DNA of 64,000 nt, taken from contig NC_043008.1 in assembly GCF_006345805.1 (NCBI RefSeq), positions 55,428,001-55,492,000 on the forward strand, read 5' to 3'. Under the pieces are notes generated by a model. The model did not search any database and was not told the origin of the DNA. It saw only the letters and a program-made list of their open reading frames with translations. This stretch comes from Octopus sinensis. Its lineage: Eukaryota. Each line of letters opens with the position of its first letter. The first letter of the stretch is position 1. Below, piece by piece: positions 1 to 64,000 of this stretch. The position numbers and the translations under genes are program-made.

Positions 1-289
1 CCTAAAATTATACGCTGATAACTTTCTTTGACATTTGTTCTTAGGCGTAGTCCTTTCAAGGTTCTACTGATGTGGAAAAAAATCAATAACCCATTATTGC
101 AAATCAACTAAATGTTTGTAGGCTAAATTATCACAGAAATATCATCTCTGCTTCTTCATGTATCCCAATTACATAATATCAAATACAGCCAAAGATTCAT
201 CCACCTCCTGATTTAGACTCCATCGTTTTCATCAAATAATTAAAGGTGCTGCTTCTAATAGTAATTGACCATAAAATTTATTTATAGCT

Positions 290-453
290 AGGTGTAGGCA
301 TGGCAGTGTGGTAACAAGTTTGCTTGCCAACCACATAGTTCTGGGTTCAGTTCCACTGTGTAGCACCTTAGACAAGCAGCAAGTGTCTCATACTATAGCC
401 ATGAGCTGACCAAAGCCTTATGAGTGGATTTGGTAAAACTGGAAAAAACTCAT

Positions 454-496
<43 letters not shown>

Positions 497-1030
497 AACC
501 ACATGTGTGTGCTTTTGTGTTTGTATTTGTTCCTCACTGCCATTTGACAACCAGTACTGGTTTGTTTATGTCCCTGTAACTTAGTCATTGTGGAGGCACA
601 TGGCCTAGTGGTTAGAGCAATGGACTTGCGGTCGAGGGATTTCAGGTTCGAATCTCAGACCGGGCGGCATGTGTGTTTATGAGTGAAACACTTAAGCTCC
701 ATGTGGCTCCGGCAGAAGGTAATGGCAAACTTCTGCTGACTCTTTCGCCACAACTTTCTCTTACTCTTTCCTCCTGCATCTTGCAGCTCACCTGCGACGG
801 ACCAGCATCCCATCCAGGTGGGGAACCTATACGCCAAGGAAACCGGCCCTTATAAGCCAGGCGTAGCTCGAGAAGGAACAAACAACTTAGTGGTTAGGCA
901 AAAAAAGAGACTGATAGAATAAGTATCAGGCTTTAAAAAAACCAAGTGCTGGGATTAATTTGTTTGACTAAACACTTCAAACTGGTGCCCCAGCATGGCC
1001 ACAGTCCAATGACTAAAACAAGATAAAAGA
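290..1030 (+). mobile_element. Family A tRNA-headed SINE with central (TA)/(TG) microsatellite, split by a family C SINE
   Basis: A-box-like TGGCAGTGTGGT, B-box-like GGTTCAGTT, CORE-like CCTTRGRCAAG segment, central microsatellite, conserved 3' half (CTTAG...CAAAAGAGAC.GATAGAATAAGTA...CCAGCATGGCC.CAGTC) and AAAAGAT tail; more than 20 related copies in the window. Confidence 0.85.
592..886 (+). mobile_element. Family C tRNA-derived SINE nested in family A
   Basis: A box TGGCCTAGTGG, B box GGTTCGAATC, AACAAACAAC tail; AACTTAGT repeated on both sides; homologous to 39721-40446 and 51088-51392. Confidence 0.85.
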
Positions 1031-1499
1031 TAATGAGAGAGAGAAATGATGATGATGGTGGTGTCTGTGCAACCTTAAAGTACATTTGTAGTAGGTATTT
1101 AGTTGGTCGGTCTTTTTGCTTATTAAATGAGGTTATTTATATTTCCAGCAGGCCCAGAGTTCCTTTTGACATTTCCTGTTTCCTGAAACAGCAGGATTCT
1201 CAGCCACTAACATTCACAAGTGGCAGGTCCAAAACGCTCCTCAACATCTGCTCTTAACAACAGCAACCTTTATCTATATTATCAAGATTAAGGTGCAAAA
1301 CTAAAACTAGGGACCATTTTCTGTTGATAAAAGAGATAAATATATTCTAAAATTGTATAATAAATATTCAATATTTGGCCATTCTAGATTATTGCATATT
1401 AGTCTTACAGACATAGATCAAGTATTTTGGTAGACCTACTGATTCCACATGTAACTTGTAGTCTAATTATTTGGTGTGGTTGATTAACATTTCTTAATT

Positions 1500-1912
1500 G
1501 GGATCTTTTCTGTTTGAACAGCAGTTTTTAAGATAATTTCTAGGTAATTAAAAAATTTTAAACTTCGTATACTGGTAGAATATGTTTATAAAACATCTTT
1601 TTCTCTTGGCTTTATTGAGAAAATTCTATAGTTTGTAAGATATTTGTTGTTTTTTTTTCTTCAATTTCTGCAATTTCAACCAATCACTGACGTCTATTGA
1701 GGTAAAAAAACATTCTGTGTCATATGAATATGTCCCTCGTTTAAGAAACAGATTGGGTTTATTTACATTTGTGAAGAAAAAAAGATACCCTTTCCCCCAC
1801 CCCTAACCCTAAAACATTGAAATGCAATAGATCGATACTAGGGTCATAATTATGGGTGACAATTTCATATGACACCGCTAGAAAAAACTGCCGTTCAAAC
1901 CGAAAAGATCCC
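1500..1912. mobile_element. MITE with ~29-bp TIRs and 6-bp TSD (superfamily unassigned)
   Basis: Left GGGATCTTTTCTGTTTGAACAGCAGTTTT; right end reverse complement GGGATCTTTTCGGTTTGAACGGCAGTTTT; TTAATT at 1494-1499 and 1913-1918; internal CCCTAACCCTAA. Confidence 0.9.
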
Positions 1913-2002
1913 TTAATTGTAATGAGTTCATATAAAAAATAAACAAAGCACTTTTACTACCCAGTTTCCACTCATAAATGGTTATAGTGGTATGAGAGTA
2001 TC

Positions 2003-2215
2003 TGTGTGGCTGCTGTTTTTACTTAACCCCAGGAGTGCACTTACTGAGCAGACTTATGTTCAAAGGCATTCTAGATGTGACCATTCTATCATATTACATG
2101 CCTAGGAATACATATCATCCAGTGTGTCCTGCCCTTTTTGATGTGATTCAAGGGAGATCATTTGACTGCTATTTCCATCAGGTTGAGCAACCACATACAG
2201 GTTCTCACACTAGCT
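2003..2215 (-). repeat. Old dispersed repeat (family J), probably a SINE/LINE 3' fragment
   Basis: Motif CTAGAAATAGCAGC.AAATCT recurs in opposite or same orientation near 18300, 19650, 22620 and 52145. Confidence 0.5.
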
Positions 2216-2580
2216 TGTGAAAGCTAATTTTATTGTATTGGTGACAGTAGAGATATTATGTCTGTAGTAGTTGGAATCCAGTTGTATATGATATGAGAGT
2301 GTCATACACAACTGGATTCCAAAGTGACAAAGTACTCACTATAAGGAGTACTTTGTATAGTGTCCTACATATGGCTCTCCCTCACCAATGAGGGTCTCTG
2401 TCTTGTTTATGGATCCTAAGGTGACTTACGAGTTAATTATTAGTCCTAAGAGTACAAGGCATACAAACACTGTACTAAGAATAAGGTCACAACAATTAAT
2501 ATAGAAATATGATACTAGCTAAATTAGTATCAAAACTAGATACAATAACTAGCATTGTGTTGCGTTCGTGTCAATAGAAT

Positions 2581-2866
2581 AGTGTGGTAAGAAGCTTGCT
2601 TCCAAATCACATGGTTCTGGGTTCGGTCCCACCGCATGGCTCCTTGGGCAAAGTCTTGTGAGTGGATTTGGCAGATGGAAACTGAAAGAAGCCCGTCGTA
2701 TATATATTTGTGTGTGTGTTATTGTGTCTGTGTTTGTCCCCCACCATCACTTGACAACCAATGTTGGTACATGTATGTTCCTGTAACTTAGCAGTTCGGC
2801 AAAAGAGATTCATAGAATAAGTACTAAGCTTTCAAAGAATAAGTCCCGGGGTCGATTTCTTTGATC
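2581..2866 (+). mobile_element. Family A SINE, truncated
   Basis: GTGGTAAGAAGCTTGC...GGTTCGGTCCC...GGAAACTGAAAGAAGCCCGTCG...GAATAAGTCCCGGGGTCGATTT. Confidence 0.85.
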
Positions 2867-2908
2867 CAACCTCCTAAAAAAACCCGTGAAAGAATCCCTA
2901 AACTCCCA

Positions 2909-3389
2909 ATCCCGCTGAAAGGTTTGATCCCTGTAGTGGTGTGTTGGCTTGTTTGCCAAAATGACCCCGAGAGCTATGCCAATGTAGCGCAAGCTGCTGG
3001 TAGGACCTCTAATACTGGACAGGTCAAAAGACTGAGGCCAGACTAATATAGATCAACTCTTCCCAGAGGCAAAAATAGGTTCGTGCTGGGCCAACACCCC
3101 TACCAAGACAAAAGCAAAGTTACAAAAGCACCAATGATAATTCAAAACCAATAAGACCTGGGAGAGCAAGGCCTTCTGCCCTCAGGGTAACAGGTCTCCT
3201 TGATCTGAAACCTACAAGATAAATGGAAGAGGTGACCCCCTAAAAATAGCTGAATGTGAGCGAGATGCTACGGCAGAACTGAAAAAGCAGTGACCCAACA
3301 GGAGAGAAGTAGAAAAAACAGCTTAGAATCAAGAACAGAGGAAAGAAGTTGTTGATGATTTATTCTCAATAGAAAATGAAGGGCTTAAG
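2909..3389 (+). mobile_element. Internally deleted non-autonomous RTE-clade element (5' leader fused to ORF C-terminus and 3' end)
   Basis: 10-bp TSD TAAACTCCCA (2899-2908, 3390-3399); RTE-like leader motif GAGCTATGCC...GGTAGGACC...CAGGTC; degenerate C-terminal peptide (GRGDP...EVEKTA*NQEQRKEVVDDLFS...EGLK*) resembling RTE ORF ends; TAAGT tail. Confidence 0.7.
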
Positions 3390-3545
3390 TAAACTCCCAC
3401 ACACTGCAACCGCCATTAACCTGTTCTATTCCCTGGACTGTAGAATAGGCAAAAAGTAGATAATATGATTCAGTGTGGTCAAGCCAAGAAACTAGATCCA
3501 ATTACTGCCAGCATGTTATAATTTGTGGAAAGTTCACTTGAGACA

Positions 3546-4352
3546 TAATGGTTTCAAATTTTGGCAAAGGGCCAGTAATTATTTTATGGGAGAGATAAGT
3601 CAATTACAGAGATCCCAGTGCTCAACTGGTCCTTAAGGCAAAGTTGACCTCTGTGGAACTTGAATCCAGAACATAAGGGCTGATAGAAACATTAGCACGC
3701 CGGGCAAAATGCTTAGCGGTATTTCGTCTGTCTTTACGTTCTGAGTTCAAATTCTGCCGAGGTCGACTTTGCCTTTCTTCCTTTCAGGGTCAATAAATTA
3801 AGTACCAGTTACACACTGGGGTCGATATAATTGACTTAATCCGTTTATTTGTCCTTGTTTGTCCCCTCTGTGTTTAGCCCCTTGTGGGCAGTAAAGAAAT
3901 AGGTATTTTGTCTGTCTTTACGTTCTGAGTTCAAATTCTGCCGAGGTCGACTTTGCCTTTCATCCTTTCAGGGTCAATAAATTAAGTACCAGTTACACAC
4001 TGGGGTCGATATAATTGACTTAATCCGTTTATTTGTCCTTGTTTGTCCCCTCTGTGTTTAGCCCCTTGTGGGCAGTAAAGAAATAGGTATTTCGTCTGTC
4101 TTTACGTTCTGAGTTCAAATTCTGCCGAGGTCGACTTTGCCTTTCATCCTTTCAGGGTCGATAAATTAAGTACCAGTTACATACTGGGATCGATGTAATC
4201 GACTTAATCCCTTTGTCTGTCCTTGTTTGTCCCCTCTAAGTTTAGCCCCTTGTGGGCAGTAAAGAAATAAGAACATAAGGGACAGAATTAAGGGGGGAAA
4301 AAACGCCACTAAGAGCATTTTGTCTGACATGCTAACATTTCTGCCAGCCCCC
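3546..4352 (-). mobile_element. Older family B2 SINE, interrupted by the B trimer
   Basis: Reverse-strand tail (ATAATGGTTTCAAATTTTGGC) at 3546 and head (CATGCTAACATTTCTGCCAGC) at about 4330-4350 flank the insert. Confidence 0.65.
3680..4269 (+). mobile_element. Family B SINE trimer (one head plus three ~184-bp units)
   Basis: Units start at 3718, 3902 and 4086 (GGTATTT.GTCTG); GAGTTCAAATT B-box-like motif; central GCCTTTCATCCTTTC.GGGTCGATAAA..AGTACCAG (Meta-domain-like, from memory); TSD AGAACATAAGGG at 3668-3679 and 4270-4281. Confidence 0.9.
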
Positions 4353-59640: not shown

Positions 59641-59958
59641 CGACAAGAATAATAACCCTTTCTACTTGAAGCACAAGGAATCAAATTTTTGGCAAAGTGC
59701 AAAGATTTCTATCTTTCAGGGAAGTAGGAAATGGGGATTGTGCAGTATTTTTTGAAGTCATCTGGAAAATATATGAATTAAACAGATTCCATTTGGAGCC
59801 TGAAACATTATCGTAGTGTCCTAATAGAATTATCATCATTATTTCATGCCCACCTTCTATGCTGACATGGGTTGGACAGACCACTGTAATCCAATTCAGT
59901 TCTTATGCATAGTGCTCTCTTTGATGGATAGGGACCACATTTCACTATGTTCGATTTT

Positions 59959-60330
59959 TTGGCATCCCCAAAGTCCATCCCCTCCTCACCATGGTGGGGA
60001 CGCTGGCAACGGGTAGTGTCAGAGCTATGCCGTCGGGAACTTCAGTTCCTGGTAAGGCCACATAAGGCGGATTGGTCTGACACCGAGTAGTATTAAGGCC
60101 ACAACCCGGCAGATGGGGCTCTGGTGAAAATCCTCAGAGTGTCTGTTTCGGCAACTGGTGGCTCCTCGGGCGTTCTGTTCCTGCGTCTGCGGACAATCTG
60201 CGGCAAACAGGATGTCTCTACATGCGGGATTGTTGGGGACTGCTTGTGAAATCCACATATTCCCACGAAACTTCTTCCAAGGAAGAAGCCGACTCAACCC
60301 GCCCATGGTGAATGTCGCCACAAGTACAAG
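59959..60330 (+). mobile_element. GC-rich, structured non-autonomous retroelement with RTE-like leader and no tRNA head
   Basis: 13-bp TSD TATGTTCSATTTT with one mismatch (59946-59958, 60331-60343); CAAGTACAAG(TA) tandem tail; AGAGCTATGCC leader motif; several hairpins. Confidence 0.7.
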
Positions 60331-61867
60331 TATGTTCCATTTTAGGAAGGTTACTATGGACTGATACCCATACTAACACTAACCACTTTATGGAGAAAGA
60401 GTACAAAGTGCATTTTACCATGGCACCAGCACTAGTGAAGCTGCTTTGTCTCCTGTAATGATGAAGAGTTCTAAGTACTCTATTTTGAAATATAAATTTG
60501 TAAAAAAAAAAAAAAATTATATTTTGTATTGATTTGATATTCAAATATTCCACTCACATAAGCATTTCAATCTGTTAGATTTTGTCAATGCAATTTTGAA
60601 ATTTAAGCCGAAAAGAGAATTAAATTTGTGTAATTTTGGAGATCAAGTGCTTAGTTTAAAAAAAATATTATTTGTAGTCACAATGTGGTTACAAAAATAG
60701 AAAATCATAATAACTACACAAAAAATTATTTTTCTTCAAGTTTAAAATTTCAGAATTAGACTGATGAAATCTAACAGAGATTGGAGCATGTTGCAATTGG
60801 AATATTAGAAAGAGAAAAGAAGTTTAAAAAATCAATAACATAAACATGAAGTAGAATAACTGTTCGTGACATTATTTGTCTGTTTTGCTAATTTACTTTG
60901 CAAATTTCATAAAGAAAATAGATTGTTAGGGAAACAAACAGAAAAAAAATCAGAGAGACAGAAAAAAAAAAATTTTTCTTTTATTATTTAAAAGAAGTGG
61001 ATATCAAATCTGGATGTTATTGAACAAAGAGATATTAGCCTCAGTATGAGTCAGATTTATCTCAAGCTATTTGCTAGAACACCAGTGACTGGCTTATATA
61101 AAGAAAGGAACCACTTTTCTCCATGGGGTTAAACCCTAAAAAGGCAAGAAGACTATCACTATAATAACACTTATACACACACACACACACACACACACAT
61201 ACATACATATATATACTAACACACACTGGCCACCCCTTTCCCACCTCTCCACAGCACACATCCATCAACAACCACTACCCCCAGCATCTTTGCTCCTCAT
61301 CCAAAACTCTTCTCTCACAGAAGAAGATATGTCTGTAATTCTATATTTGTAACCTGGTGCCAGGGCTGAGGCTGATAATTAATTTCAGCTGATAATTAAA
61401 TTCAATTTCACTTGTTGATATTTTTAGCACTTACTCCAATATTATCATATTCAACGTGTGTGTGAATGTATATACATGTGTATGTAAATATGCTTGTATG
61501 TGTATGTTTGCAAGTATGTGTAAATGTATACACGCTGATGAGAACGTTCTTCGTTCTGTTCCACCGCCACGTCTCCCCATTCTCGTTCCAAAGACTAAGC
61601 ACTGTCTTTGATATCACCGGCTACTCCCCTCTTCTTCCCACAGACCCCACCACCCTTTTTTTTTATCAGTTATCTTTCACTCCACTCCCTTCAAGTTGTG
61701 TTAGTTACTCTGTGTGTACACAAACACACAGACACACACATACACATTAACGAACACACACACACATTATTGATGATACAGATTTACGTTGTGATGTTGA
61801 TAAATCTGCTTGTCCATAACATGTATTTAACACACAATTATAAATATACACATACACACAGATGTAC

Positions 61868-63414: not shown

Positions 63415-64000
63415 GGAATCAGAAAGATAGAGACAATGGTTGAAAGCTTGCACTACATGTTTACACTATATATTCTTTTCTACTCTAGGCGCAAGGTCTG
63501 AAATTTGTGGGGAGGGGGCCAGTTGATTATATCGACCCCAATATGCAACTGGTACTTAATTTTATCAACCCAGAAAGGATGAAAGGCAACGTCGACCTCA
63601 GAACGTAAAGACAGGCAAAATACCTATTTCTTTACTACCCAAAAGGGGCTAAACATAGAGAGGACAAACAAGGACAGGCAAATGGATTAAGTCGATTACA
63701 TTGACCCCCAGTGCGTAACTGGTACTTATTTAATCAACCCCGAAAGGATGAAAGGCAACATCGACTTCAGCGGAATTTGAACTCAGAACGTAAAGACAGG
63801 CAAAATACCTATTTCTTTACTACCCAAAAGGGGCTAAACACAGAGAGACAAACAGATTAAGTCGATTACATTGACCCGAGTGCGTAACTGGTACTTATTT
63901 AATCAACCCTGAAAGGATGAAAGGCAACGTCGACCTCAGCGGAATTTGAACTCAGAATGTAAAGACAGGCAAAATACCTATTTCTTTACTACCCACAAGG
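63415..64000 (-). mobile_element. Family B SINE multimer (four or more units, runs off the window)
   Basis: Repeated junction GACAGGCAAAATACC|TATTTCTTTAC; the terminal unit carries a B2-type tail. Confidence 0.85.

Follow-up and report, generated by a model that had tools for sequence, protein, structure and literature searches.

A conserved three-branched domain in P4 of a likely HDV-like ribozyme fold at the 5′ ends of RTE-type elements

The window, a 64,000-nucleotide stretch of Octopus sinensis DNA, contains two non-autonomous elements, A and B, and the first ~150 nt of both families likely fold as an HDV-like double pseudoknot. In this model, the motif of about 60 nt shared by the two leaders is a conserved three-branched arm in P4 of that fold. 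We consider it probable that the fold with this three-way-junction domain is self-cleaving at the first base of the element, and that the domain is a protein docking site. The helices of the fold covary, its start is the element 5′ end, and the position of the catalytic C is conserved. A sequence-only reading of this DNA had taken the motif for a candidate uncharacterised ribozyme, whereas it fits a peripheral P4 domain between the two halves of an HDV-like core. Its broader proposal, a conserved and covarying structured RNA that is tied to the 5′ end in RTE-type leaders, was borne out.

Elements A and B and their 5′ ends

Element A (2909..3389, + strand) is an old RTE-type copy comprising the 5′ leader and a short 3′ remnant. 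Its 5′ TSD (2899..2908, + strand) is an exact 10-nt repeat, TAAACTCCCA, with the 3′ copy at 3390-3399. Element B (59962..60330, + strand) is a young copy, and its 5′ TSD (59946..59958, + strand) is a 13-nt repeat with one mismatch, with the 3′ copy at 60331-60343. Both loci are decayed copies of high-copy non-autonomous families, with identities of 69–83% in family A (40 scored of 1352 first-look candidates) and 91–94% in family B (40 scored of 1532). Comparison of the copies agreed with the earlier observation that the element bodies are unlike. The two ends of a 3.4-kb element bearing endonuclease and RT frames are both found in B, the start in nt 1–318 and the end in nt 321–371, and judging from these matches family B is an internal deletion derivative of this parent. 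The parent copy (L463) spans 203-3635 and shows endonuclease similarity and RVT_1 matches in broken frames. A search of 60 A loci and of the surroundings of the nearest endonuclease locus (L167/L499) gave no autonomous parent of A.

LINEs of the RTE clade measure ~3.3 kb; a single ORF for endonuclease and RT follows a short leader, and the element ends in a short tandem-repeat tail and is flanked by a TSD. The B parent shows this anatomy; in A, only the leader, tail, and TSD are seen. We use the label RTE-type provisionally, on the basis of this anatomy and of the similar leader in Repbase-named RTE and BovB rows. Three B-type motif matches (L063–L065; G000:C8867:39699-40396) lie 333 nt apart, a spacing that suggests a tandem array of B units. 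Tandem ~180-nt units of a common SINE-like repeat occupy 3700-4280 and 63490-64000 of the window in opposite orientations.

The architecture described earlier as common to 2970-3025 and 60021-60077 was found again in the window sequence, and TSD mapping reproduced the distances from the 5′ TSD to the motif, 61 nt in A and 62 nt in B. A common start (ATCCC..AAAG..ATCCC) had also been proposed; it is in part an accident of decay, the family A majority starting otherwise. Of 30 B copies, 20 gave a TSD call (a few of them doubtful); these TSDs end at −64 to −55 from the motif, 13 of them within 2 nt of the predicted −60. Matches start at exactly the predicted +1 in 20 of the 30 B copies and within 5 nt of it in all 30, with a column support of 0.80 at +1 and 0.53 at −1; this precision is inflated because the top BLAST matches to a full-length query favour full-length copies. 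The 5′ ends of the copies thus map to P1, ~60 nt upstream of the motif. The distance from TSD to motif is the length of the ribozyme 5′ half, and it is constant because the motif lies within P4.

HDV-like core of the leader

In A, the 5′ strands of P1 (2912-2918) and P2 (2921-2927) were placed by the family majority and the descriptor fit, and both are decayed in the window copy. P3 (2928-2930/2938-2940), placed in the same way, flanks L3 (2931-2937), in which U20 has changed to C. The P1 3′ strand (2941-2947) follows, with J1/4 from 2948, so that the HDV-like 5′ half spans 2912..2951. J4/2 and the P2 3′ strand lie at 3041..3054, with the predicted catalytic C at 3043, A at 3046, and the P2 strand at 3048-3054. 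In B, P1 is formed by 59962-59969/59996-60003, with predicted cleavage 5′ of G59962, and the 5′ half spans 59962..60005. The descriptor fit placed the P2 5′ strand at 59979-59982, P3 at 59983-59985/59993-59995, L3 at 59986-59992, and the P1.1 partner at 60004-60005. In 60110..60118 of B, J4/2 (CAGA, where C60110 is the predicted catalytic base) precedes the P2 3′ strand at 60115-60118. All of these elements are on the + strand.

Relatives were collected from metagenomes by a sequence pattern (at least 96 stretches; 82 of those listed span the leader; 23 clusters) and from the same genome (sister family B2 and autonomous B). Of 26 family-level sequences, 24 could be fitted with the descriptor, which comprises P1, P2, P3, a 7-nt L3, P1.1, and C75. 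Thirteen sequences, scoring 10–19.5, were used further, and they place +1 at −56 to −65 relative to the motif. Of the 13 excluded, one was a family whose L3 bears an insert, and the remaining 12 were single copies, for the most part truncated or decayed. Chance loci (n = 238) had a median score of 5, a 99th percentile of 12, and a maximum of 14. Family A, at 11.5, is near the chance 99th percentile and unconvincing by that score alone.

Ten of the 23 metagenome clusters, among the matches listed, entered the family permutation test. With the 13 family sequences, own-family pairing exceeded cross-family pairing in P1 (0.92 vs 0.71), P2 (0.85 vs 0.53), and the base of P4 (P4a; 0.97 vs 0.50), each at p = 5e-5, values that are optimistic because the registers of these helices were picked by best fit and the families are related. 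The p value of P3 was 0.014. For 22 natural copies in an unguided alignment that contains some misaligned rows, 30 of 42 pairs were changed on both sides (0 of 500 shuffles), and sliding the partners left 13–15 such pairs.

P1 has 7–8 bp (6–7 bp in the HDV-like criterion), its start coincides with the element 5′ end, and six of its seven pairs change on both sides. P2 covaries and has 5–9 bp in family A and the metagenome families (at least 5 bp in the HDV-like criterion); in B and B2, it has only 4 contiguous bp. Family majorities show a 3-bp P3 and a 7-nt L3, in which U20 and G25 reach a conservation of 90% or more in the unguided alignment; the exceptions are a U-U in P3 of B, an 8-nt L3 in two families, and a variable C24. 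In P1.1 (1–2 bp in the HDV-like criterion), 15 of the 22 rows have G-C as the 22-38 pair and 4 have A-U; two rows do not pair there and one has a gap. The helix has 2 bp in B and B2 and 1 bp in most other families. C75 and A78 stand at one offset in 71 of the 82 metagenome copies among the matches listed; these letters are absent from the collecting pattern, and the local search was fuzzy and contained them. J4/2 is CAGA in 28 of 30 B copies, in agreement with the C-R-R-A of an HDV-like descriptor (PMC6326823); elsewhere its second letter is often U in place of a purine. The +1 nucleotide, in the HDV-like criterion a G paired with a pyrimidine, is G in 80% of the 30 B copies; most other families begin with C, which makes the cleavage register there uncertain by 1 nt. 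In cluster m18 (L082, L085, L086, L098, L142, and L155), a small hairpin lies between L3 and the P3 3′ strand in six of six copies.

The 4-bp P2 of B with its U-U in P3, and the C start and 1-bp P1.1 of other families, count against the HDV-like fold. The two peculiarities of B would also suit a catalytically dead relic in A and B, with the precise 5′ ends arising from an internal promoter at +1, and the 77-nt leader of L1Tc is both promoter and ribozyme (PMC3185411). We regard such a relic as improbable, since B and B2 keep C75, A78, U20, G25, and the 2-bp P1.1 while showing compensatory changes between them in P1, the P4 base, and an extra hairpin. The two window copies are, however, probably inactive on account of their core mutations: U20C in L3 and decayed P1 and P2 in A, and G25A at 59991 in B. 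G25A abolished cleavage in a Nasonia R2 and did not do so fully in HDV (PMC3774820). P1, the core, and J4/2 are all undamaged in 8 of the 30 B copies.

A weak Rfam match to HDV-F-prausnitzii starts at nt 1 of the B copy L032 (E 0.93), with 17 bits against a gathering threshold of 44, and is thus below the Rfam HDV threshold (e.g., RF02682). No Rfam ribozyme match was obtained for the window A copy, and the two leader regions matched neither twister nor hammerhead with an E cut-off of 10. The whole-window scan gave no ribozyme among the matches listed (150 of 199), those listed being simple-repeat artefacts. Standard Rfam models miss these predicted ribozymes, probably on account of the large P4, and HDV-like ribozymes in animal genomes may consequently be undercounted. 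The earlier judgement that the motif could not be fitted to an HDV consensus no longer holds once nt +1 to ~+150 are read as one unit.

Branched domain in P4

P4 of A with the branched domain extends over 2955..3038. It comprises a basal stem (2955-2959/3034-3038), GA/UC pairs (2971-2972/3024-3025), a junction-closing helix supported by covariation (2979-2983/3014-3018), a side hairpin with a GCAA loop (2984-2997), and a triloop hairpin (3003-3011). In B, P4 extends over 60010..60108 with a basal stem (60010-60014/60104-60108), an 8-bp stem (60016-60023/60076-60083), a junction-closing helix likewise supported by covariation (60030-60034/60066-60070), a side hairpin (60035-60050), and a triloop hairpin (60055-60063). 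Both are on the + strand, and the triloop hairpin is decayed in both window copies. The side hairpin loop of family B is of the cUUCGg type, and TTCA is a change specific to the window copy. An extra P4 hairpin specific to B lies at about 60087-60102, with a compensatory change from U-A to C-G in B2.

The motif is far beyond chance. Its covariance model found only the two training loci in the window and matched none of 100 control loci, which were chance-like matches of a looser pattern in prokaryotic and viral contigs. The five nucleotides after GAGCTATG pair with positions 6–10 of what had earlier been drawn as a 12-nt loop, in a register set by anchors and not by fitting. All five pairs of this junction helix change on both sides, with 92.7% paired vs 81.8% when shuffled (0 of 500 shuffles), and the family permutation gave p = 5e-5 with the 13 family sequences. 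Together with the tetraloop side hairpin and an almost invariant 3-bp triloop hairpin, the junction helix makes up a three-way junction, which RNAalifold yields unprompted (22 pairs, 16 of them changed on both sides). When the isolated domain was folded thermodynamically, the junction helix was preferred for no more than 6 of the 13 family sequences; the z-scores of the isolated motif were −1.47 (A) and −2.71 (B). The conservation of GAGCTATGY, GGTAGGGYCWCCCAWG, GAGCTATG, and GGTAGGG..CCCA in this set is no evidence, because the collecting pattern itself fixes these letters.

Three stems had been proposed from the two loci, and the junction helix had been overlooked. The 5-bp tetraloop hairpin is real and covaries (family permutation p = 5e-5), but the other two are unsupported. 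TGCCR/TGGTA can pair in 97%, yet none of its pairs is changed on both sides and cross-family pairing equals own-family pairing; GGYCW/WGGTC showed no detectable covariation. The ten pairs of the earlier structure include one changed on both sides (59 of 500 shuffles reached or exceeded the observed value); the shuffle counts of the two stems were 59/500 and 128/500, with family permutation p values of 0.32–0.77. The T-A to A-T swap holds between A and B, in 62 of 62 own-genome copies, but not elsewhere: the swapped pair is paired in 59 of the 82 metagenome copies among the matches listed and in 13 of 22 aligned rows. An alternative CUGGUA/UGCCRG helix was dropped, as it showed no covariation.

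Several observations would be in keeping with a new self-cleaving ribozyme in its own right, or with a stand-alone leader of the structure first proposed. The core letters of the motif are the most conserved part of the leader across two unlike families, the Rfam comparison called for earlier gave the motif no family among the matches listed, and folding energies favour TGCCR/TGGTA in window A (0.96) and in the family A majority (0.99). Against this explanation, both of the stems concerned lack covariation, the elements begin at P1, roughly 60 nt before the motif rather than at it, and strands of P4 and P2 that covary lie on either side of the motif. We therefore consider this explanation very hard to sustain.

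BovB-like leaders had been put forward earlier as carriers of a similar motif, and the supplement rows of Kojima 2018, a set collected independently, agree (PMC5786205). Inspected by eye, 9 of the 10 named RTE/SINE rows with both strands pair at all five junction-helix positions (RTE-7_PM, RTE-3_Crp, RTE-4_PM, RTE-60_LMi, RTE-14_Lch, BovB_Plat, RTE-1_OAf, RTE1-N1_LA, and SINE2-1_EC), and the tenth, RTE1_Pca, pairs at four (PMC5786205). The letters of the helix differ among these named rows (for example TCGCC/GGCGA, CCATT/AATGG, and CCACC/GGTGG), and the GA/UC pairs become GG/CC and AA/UU (PMC5786205). Four BovB rows are without the side hairpin, yet 3–5 pairs are kept (PMC5786205). The tRNA-headed SINE2-1_EC retains the domain with an L3 deletion and a damaged P1 3′ strand and J1/4 (PMC5786205); its G25A also occurs in RTE-1_OAf, so that change counts for little. 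SINE-1_Pmo and EbuSINE2 match the RTE sequence only from about C75 onward.

In the same genome, a tight pattern gave only 6 matches, all of them B-type. The covariance model gave 7 matches in 36 endonuclease-bearing loci, again all B-type. The domain was not found in 29 of 30 endonuclease-bearing own-genome loci, some of which may be 5′-truncated. Family fam1 of this genome has P3, L3, and J1/4 of B with a plain P4 hairpin; its ORF is present and the domain absent. The endonuclease tree (43 rows) has an unresolved backbone (74/78, 81/68), which makes gain, loss, and transfer of the domain indistinguishable. A compact HDV-like fold lies ~350 nt upstream of the endonuclease match in four own-genome loci (L164, L165, L166, and L169), again with P3, L3, and J1/4 of B, a plain P4 hairpin, and no Rfam match. 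Another own-genome family (L172–L185) has a structured-looking leader ~950–800 nt upstream of the endonuclease match; most copies begin at about one place, and the leader is unlike the HDV-like one.

Possible role and comparison with known systems

By analogy with known HDV-like ribozymes, a host promoter would read through the element, and the read-through RNA would fold into the double pseudoknot and be cut 5′ of P1, as in R2, L1Tc, and the reviewed RTE, giving an RNA with a precise 5′-OH end. Reverse transcription to the cut end would place the TSD beside P1, about 60 nt before the motif. The domain would dock the element protein rather than catalyse, which is the weakest part of this proposal.

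Among the roles of the domain, docking of a protein or RNP is plausible and the one we favour, translation initiation is possible, control of ribozyme folding somewhat doubtful, and a merely stable P4 improbable. Docking is favoured because named families that were not gathered with the collecting pattern also keep the unpaired letters of the junction, and because SINE2-1_EC retains the domain despite its L3 deletion and broken P1. The latter appears to point to a cleavage-independent role. The domain seems peripheral, since fam1 combines the B core with a simple P4 hairpin and R2 elements vary greatly in P4. On the other hand, the 29 of 30 endonuclease loci without the domain, and SINE-1_Pmo and EbuSINE2, which keep the downstream sequence only, speak against an essential docking role. 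A second structured-looking segment, a short hairpin followed by a G-rich stretch, lies at 3055-3110 of the window and at the equivalent place in L067–L162, and follows the ribozyme in A and in most metagenome families among the matches listed. As some SINEs keep the region downstream of C75, this segment is a rival candidate for the protein-recognition signal.

Within an HDV-like fold, the domain could chiefly serve translation, allowing the single ORF to be read independently of a cap once cleavage has left the RNA uncapped. Reviews describe IRES-like activity of retrotransposon HDV-like ribozymes (PMC6765202, PMC7761336), and in several metagenome relatives an endonuclease ORF starts a few hundred nucleotides downstream. 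However, non-coding A and B and a tRNA-headed SINE keep the domain, possibly by hitch-hiking, and fam1 has the ORF without it; we thus find this role unlikely. A switch that times or attenuates cleavage, with TGCCR/TGGTA or CUGGUA/UGCCRG as the off state and the junction helix as the on state, seems to us less likely still. The alternative pairings remain possible in 92–98% of positions and win thermodynamically in several families, and peripheral domains, in J1/2 only, tune the rates of HDV-like ribozymes (PMC4908430). Neither pairing covaries, however (p 0.36–0.58), and they are broken in family B or BovB_Plat.

It is conceivable, if doubtful, that a sequence-conserved P4 junction module, not described before, is present in a large RTE branch that reaches from this genome to BovB relatives in vertebrates, and that it serves the RTE protein as a cis handle at the cleaved 5′ end. 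If so, the retention of 5′ ends by non-autonomous RTE derivatives, which Kojima 2018 leaves as an open point, would be accounted for (PMC5786205). What was an odd motif is now a mapped structure that allows the peripheral domain and the predicted catalytic base and cleavage site to be mutated one at a time. RTE UTRs are used in RNA-based gene insertion tools (PMC13708176).

HDV-like ribozymes are known at the 5′ ends of RTE, Baggins, and R2 retrotransposons (PMC6765202, PMC5786205, PMC3774820). The predicted fold resembles them in its double pseudoknot from the element 5′ end, 3-bp P3, 7-nt L3 with U20 and G25, catalytic C and constrained A in J4/2, and RTE context. Like L1Tc/NARTc of Trypanosoma cruzi, it would be cut at nt +1, occurs in non-autonomous derivatives, and can have a single-bp P1.1, which in L1Tc/NARTc is disruptable by an upstream G extending P1 (PMC3185411). 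L1Tc/NARTc differs in its 77-nt length, simple P4, ingi clade, and experimentally shown activity (PMC3185411). drz-Agam-2 is likewise a large HDV-like ribozyme with a structured peripheral domain; there the domain lies in J1/2 and speeds cleavage (PMC4908430), whereas the present domain belongs to P4 of a fold with a short J1/2. Bipartite non-autonomous RTE elements and the bodies of RTE-derived SINEs also join 5′ and 3′ RTE ends by internal deletion (PMC5786205). Kojima 2018 shows the motif in named RTE and BovB leaders; in the portions of that work drawn on here, the similarity is treated as one of sequence, with no structure for the segment (PMC5786205). The articles covered by a full-text literature search describe no conserved branched P4 domain; Ruminski 2011 and Webb 2009 lie outside its scope and may show such structures. 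P4 of R2 is highly variable (PMC3774820), in contrast to the sequence-conserved, covarying junction common to unrelated families here. HDV-like ribozymes at RTE 5′ ends are thus already known, and it is the conserved branched P4 domain that appears to be new.
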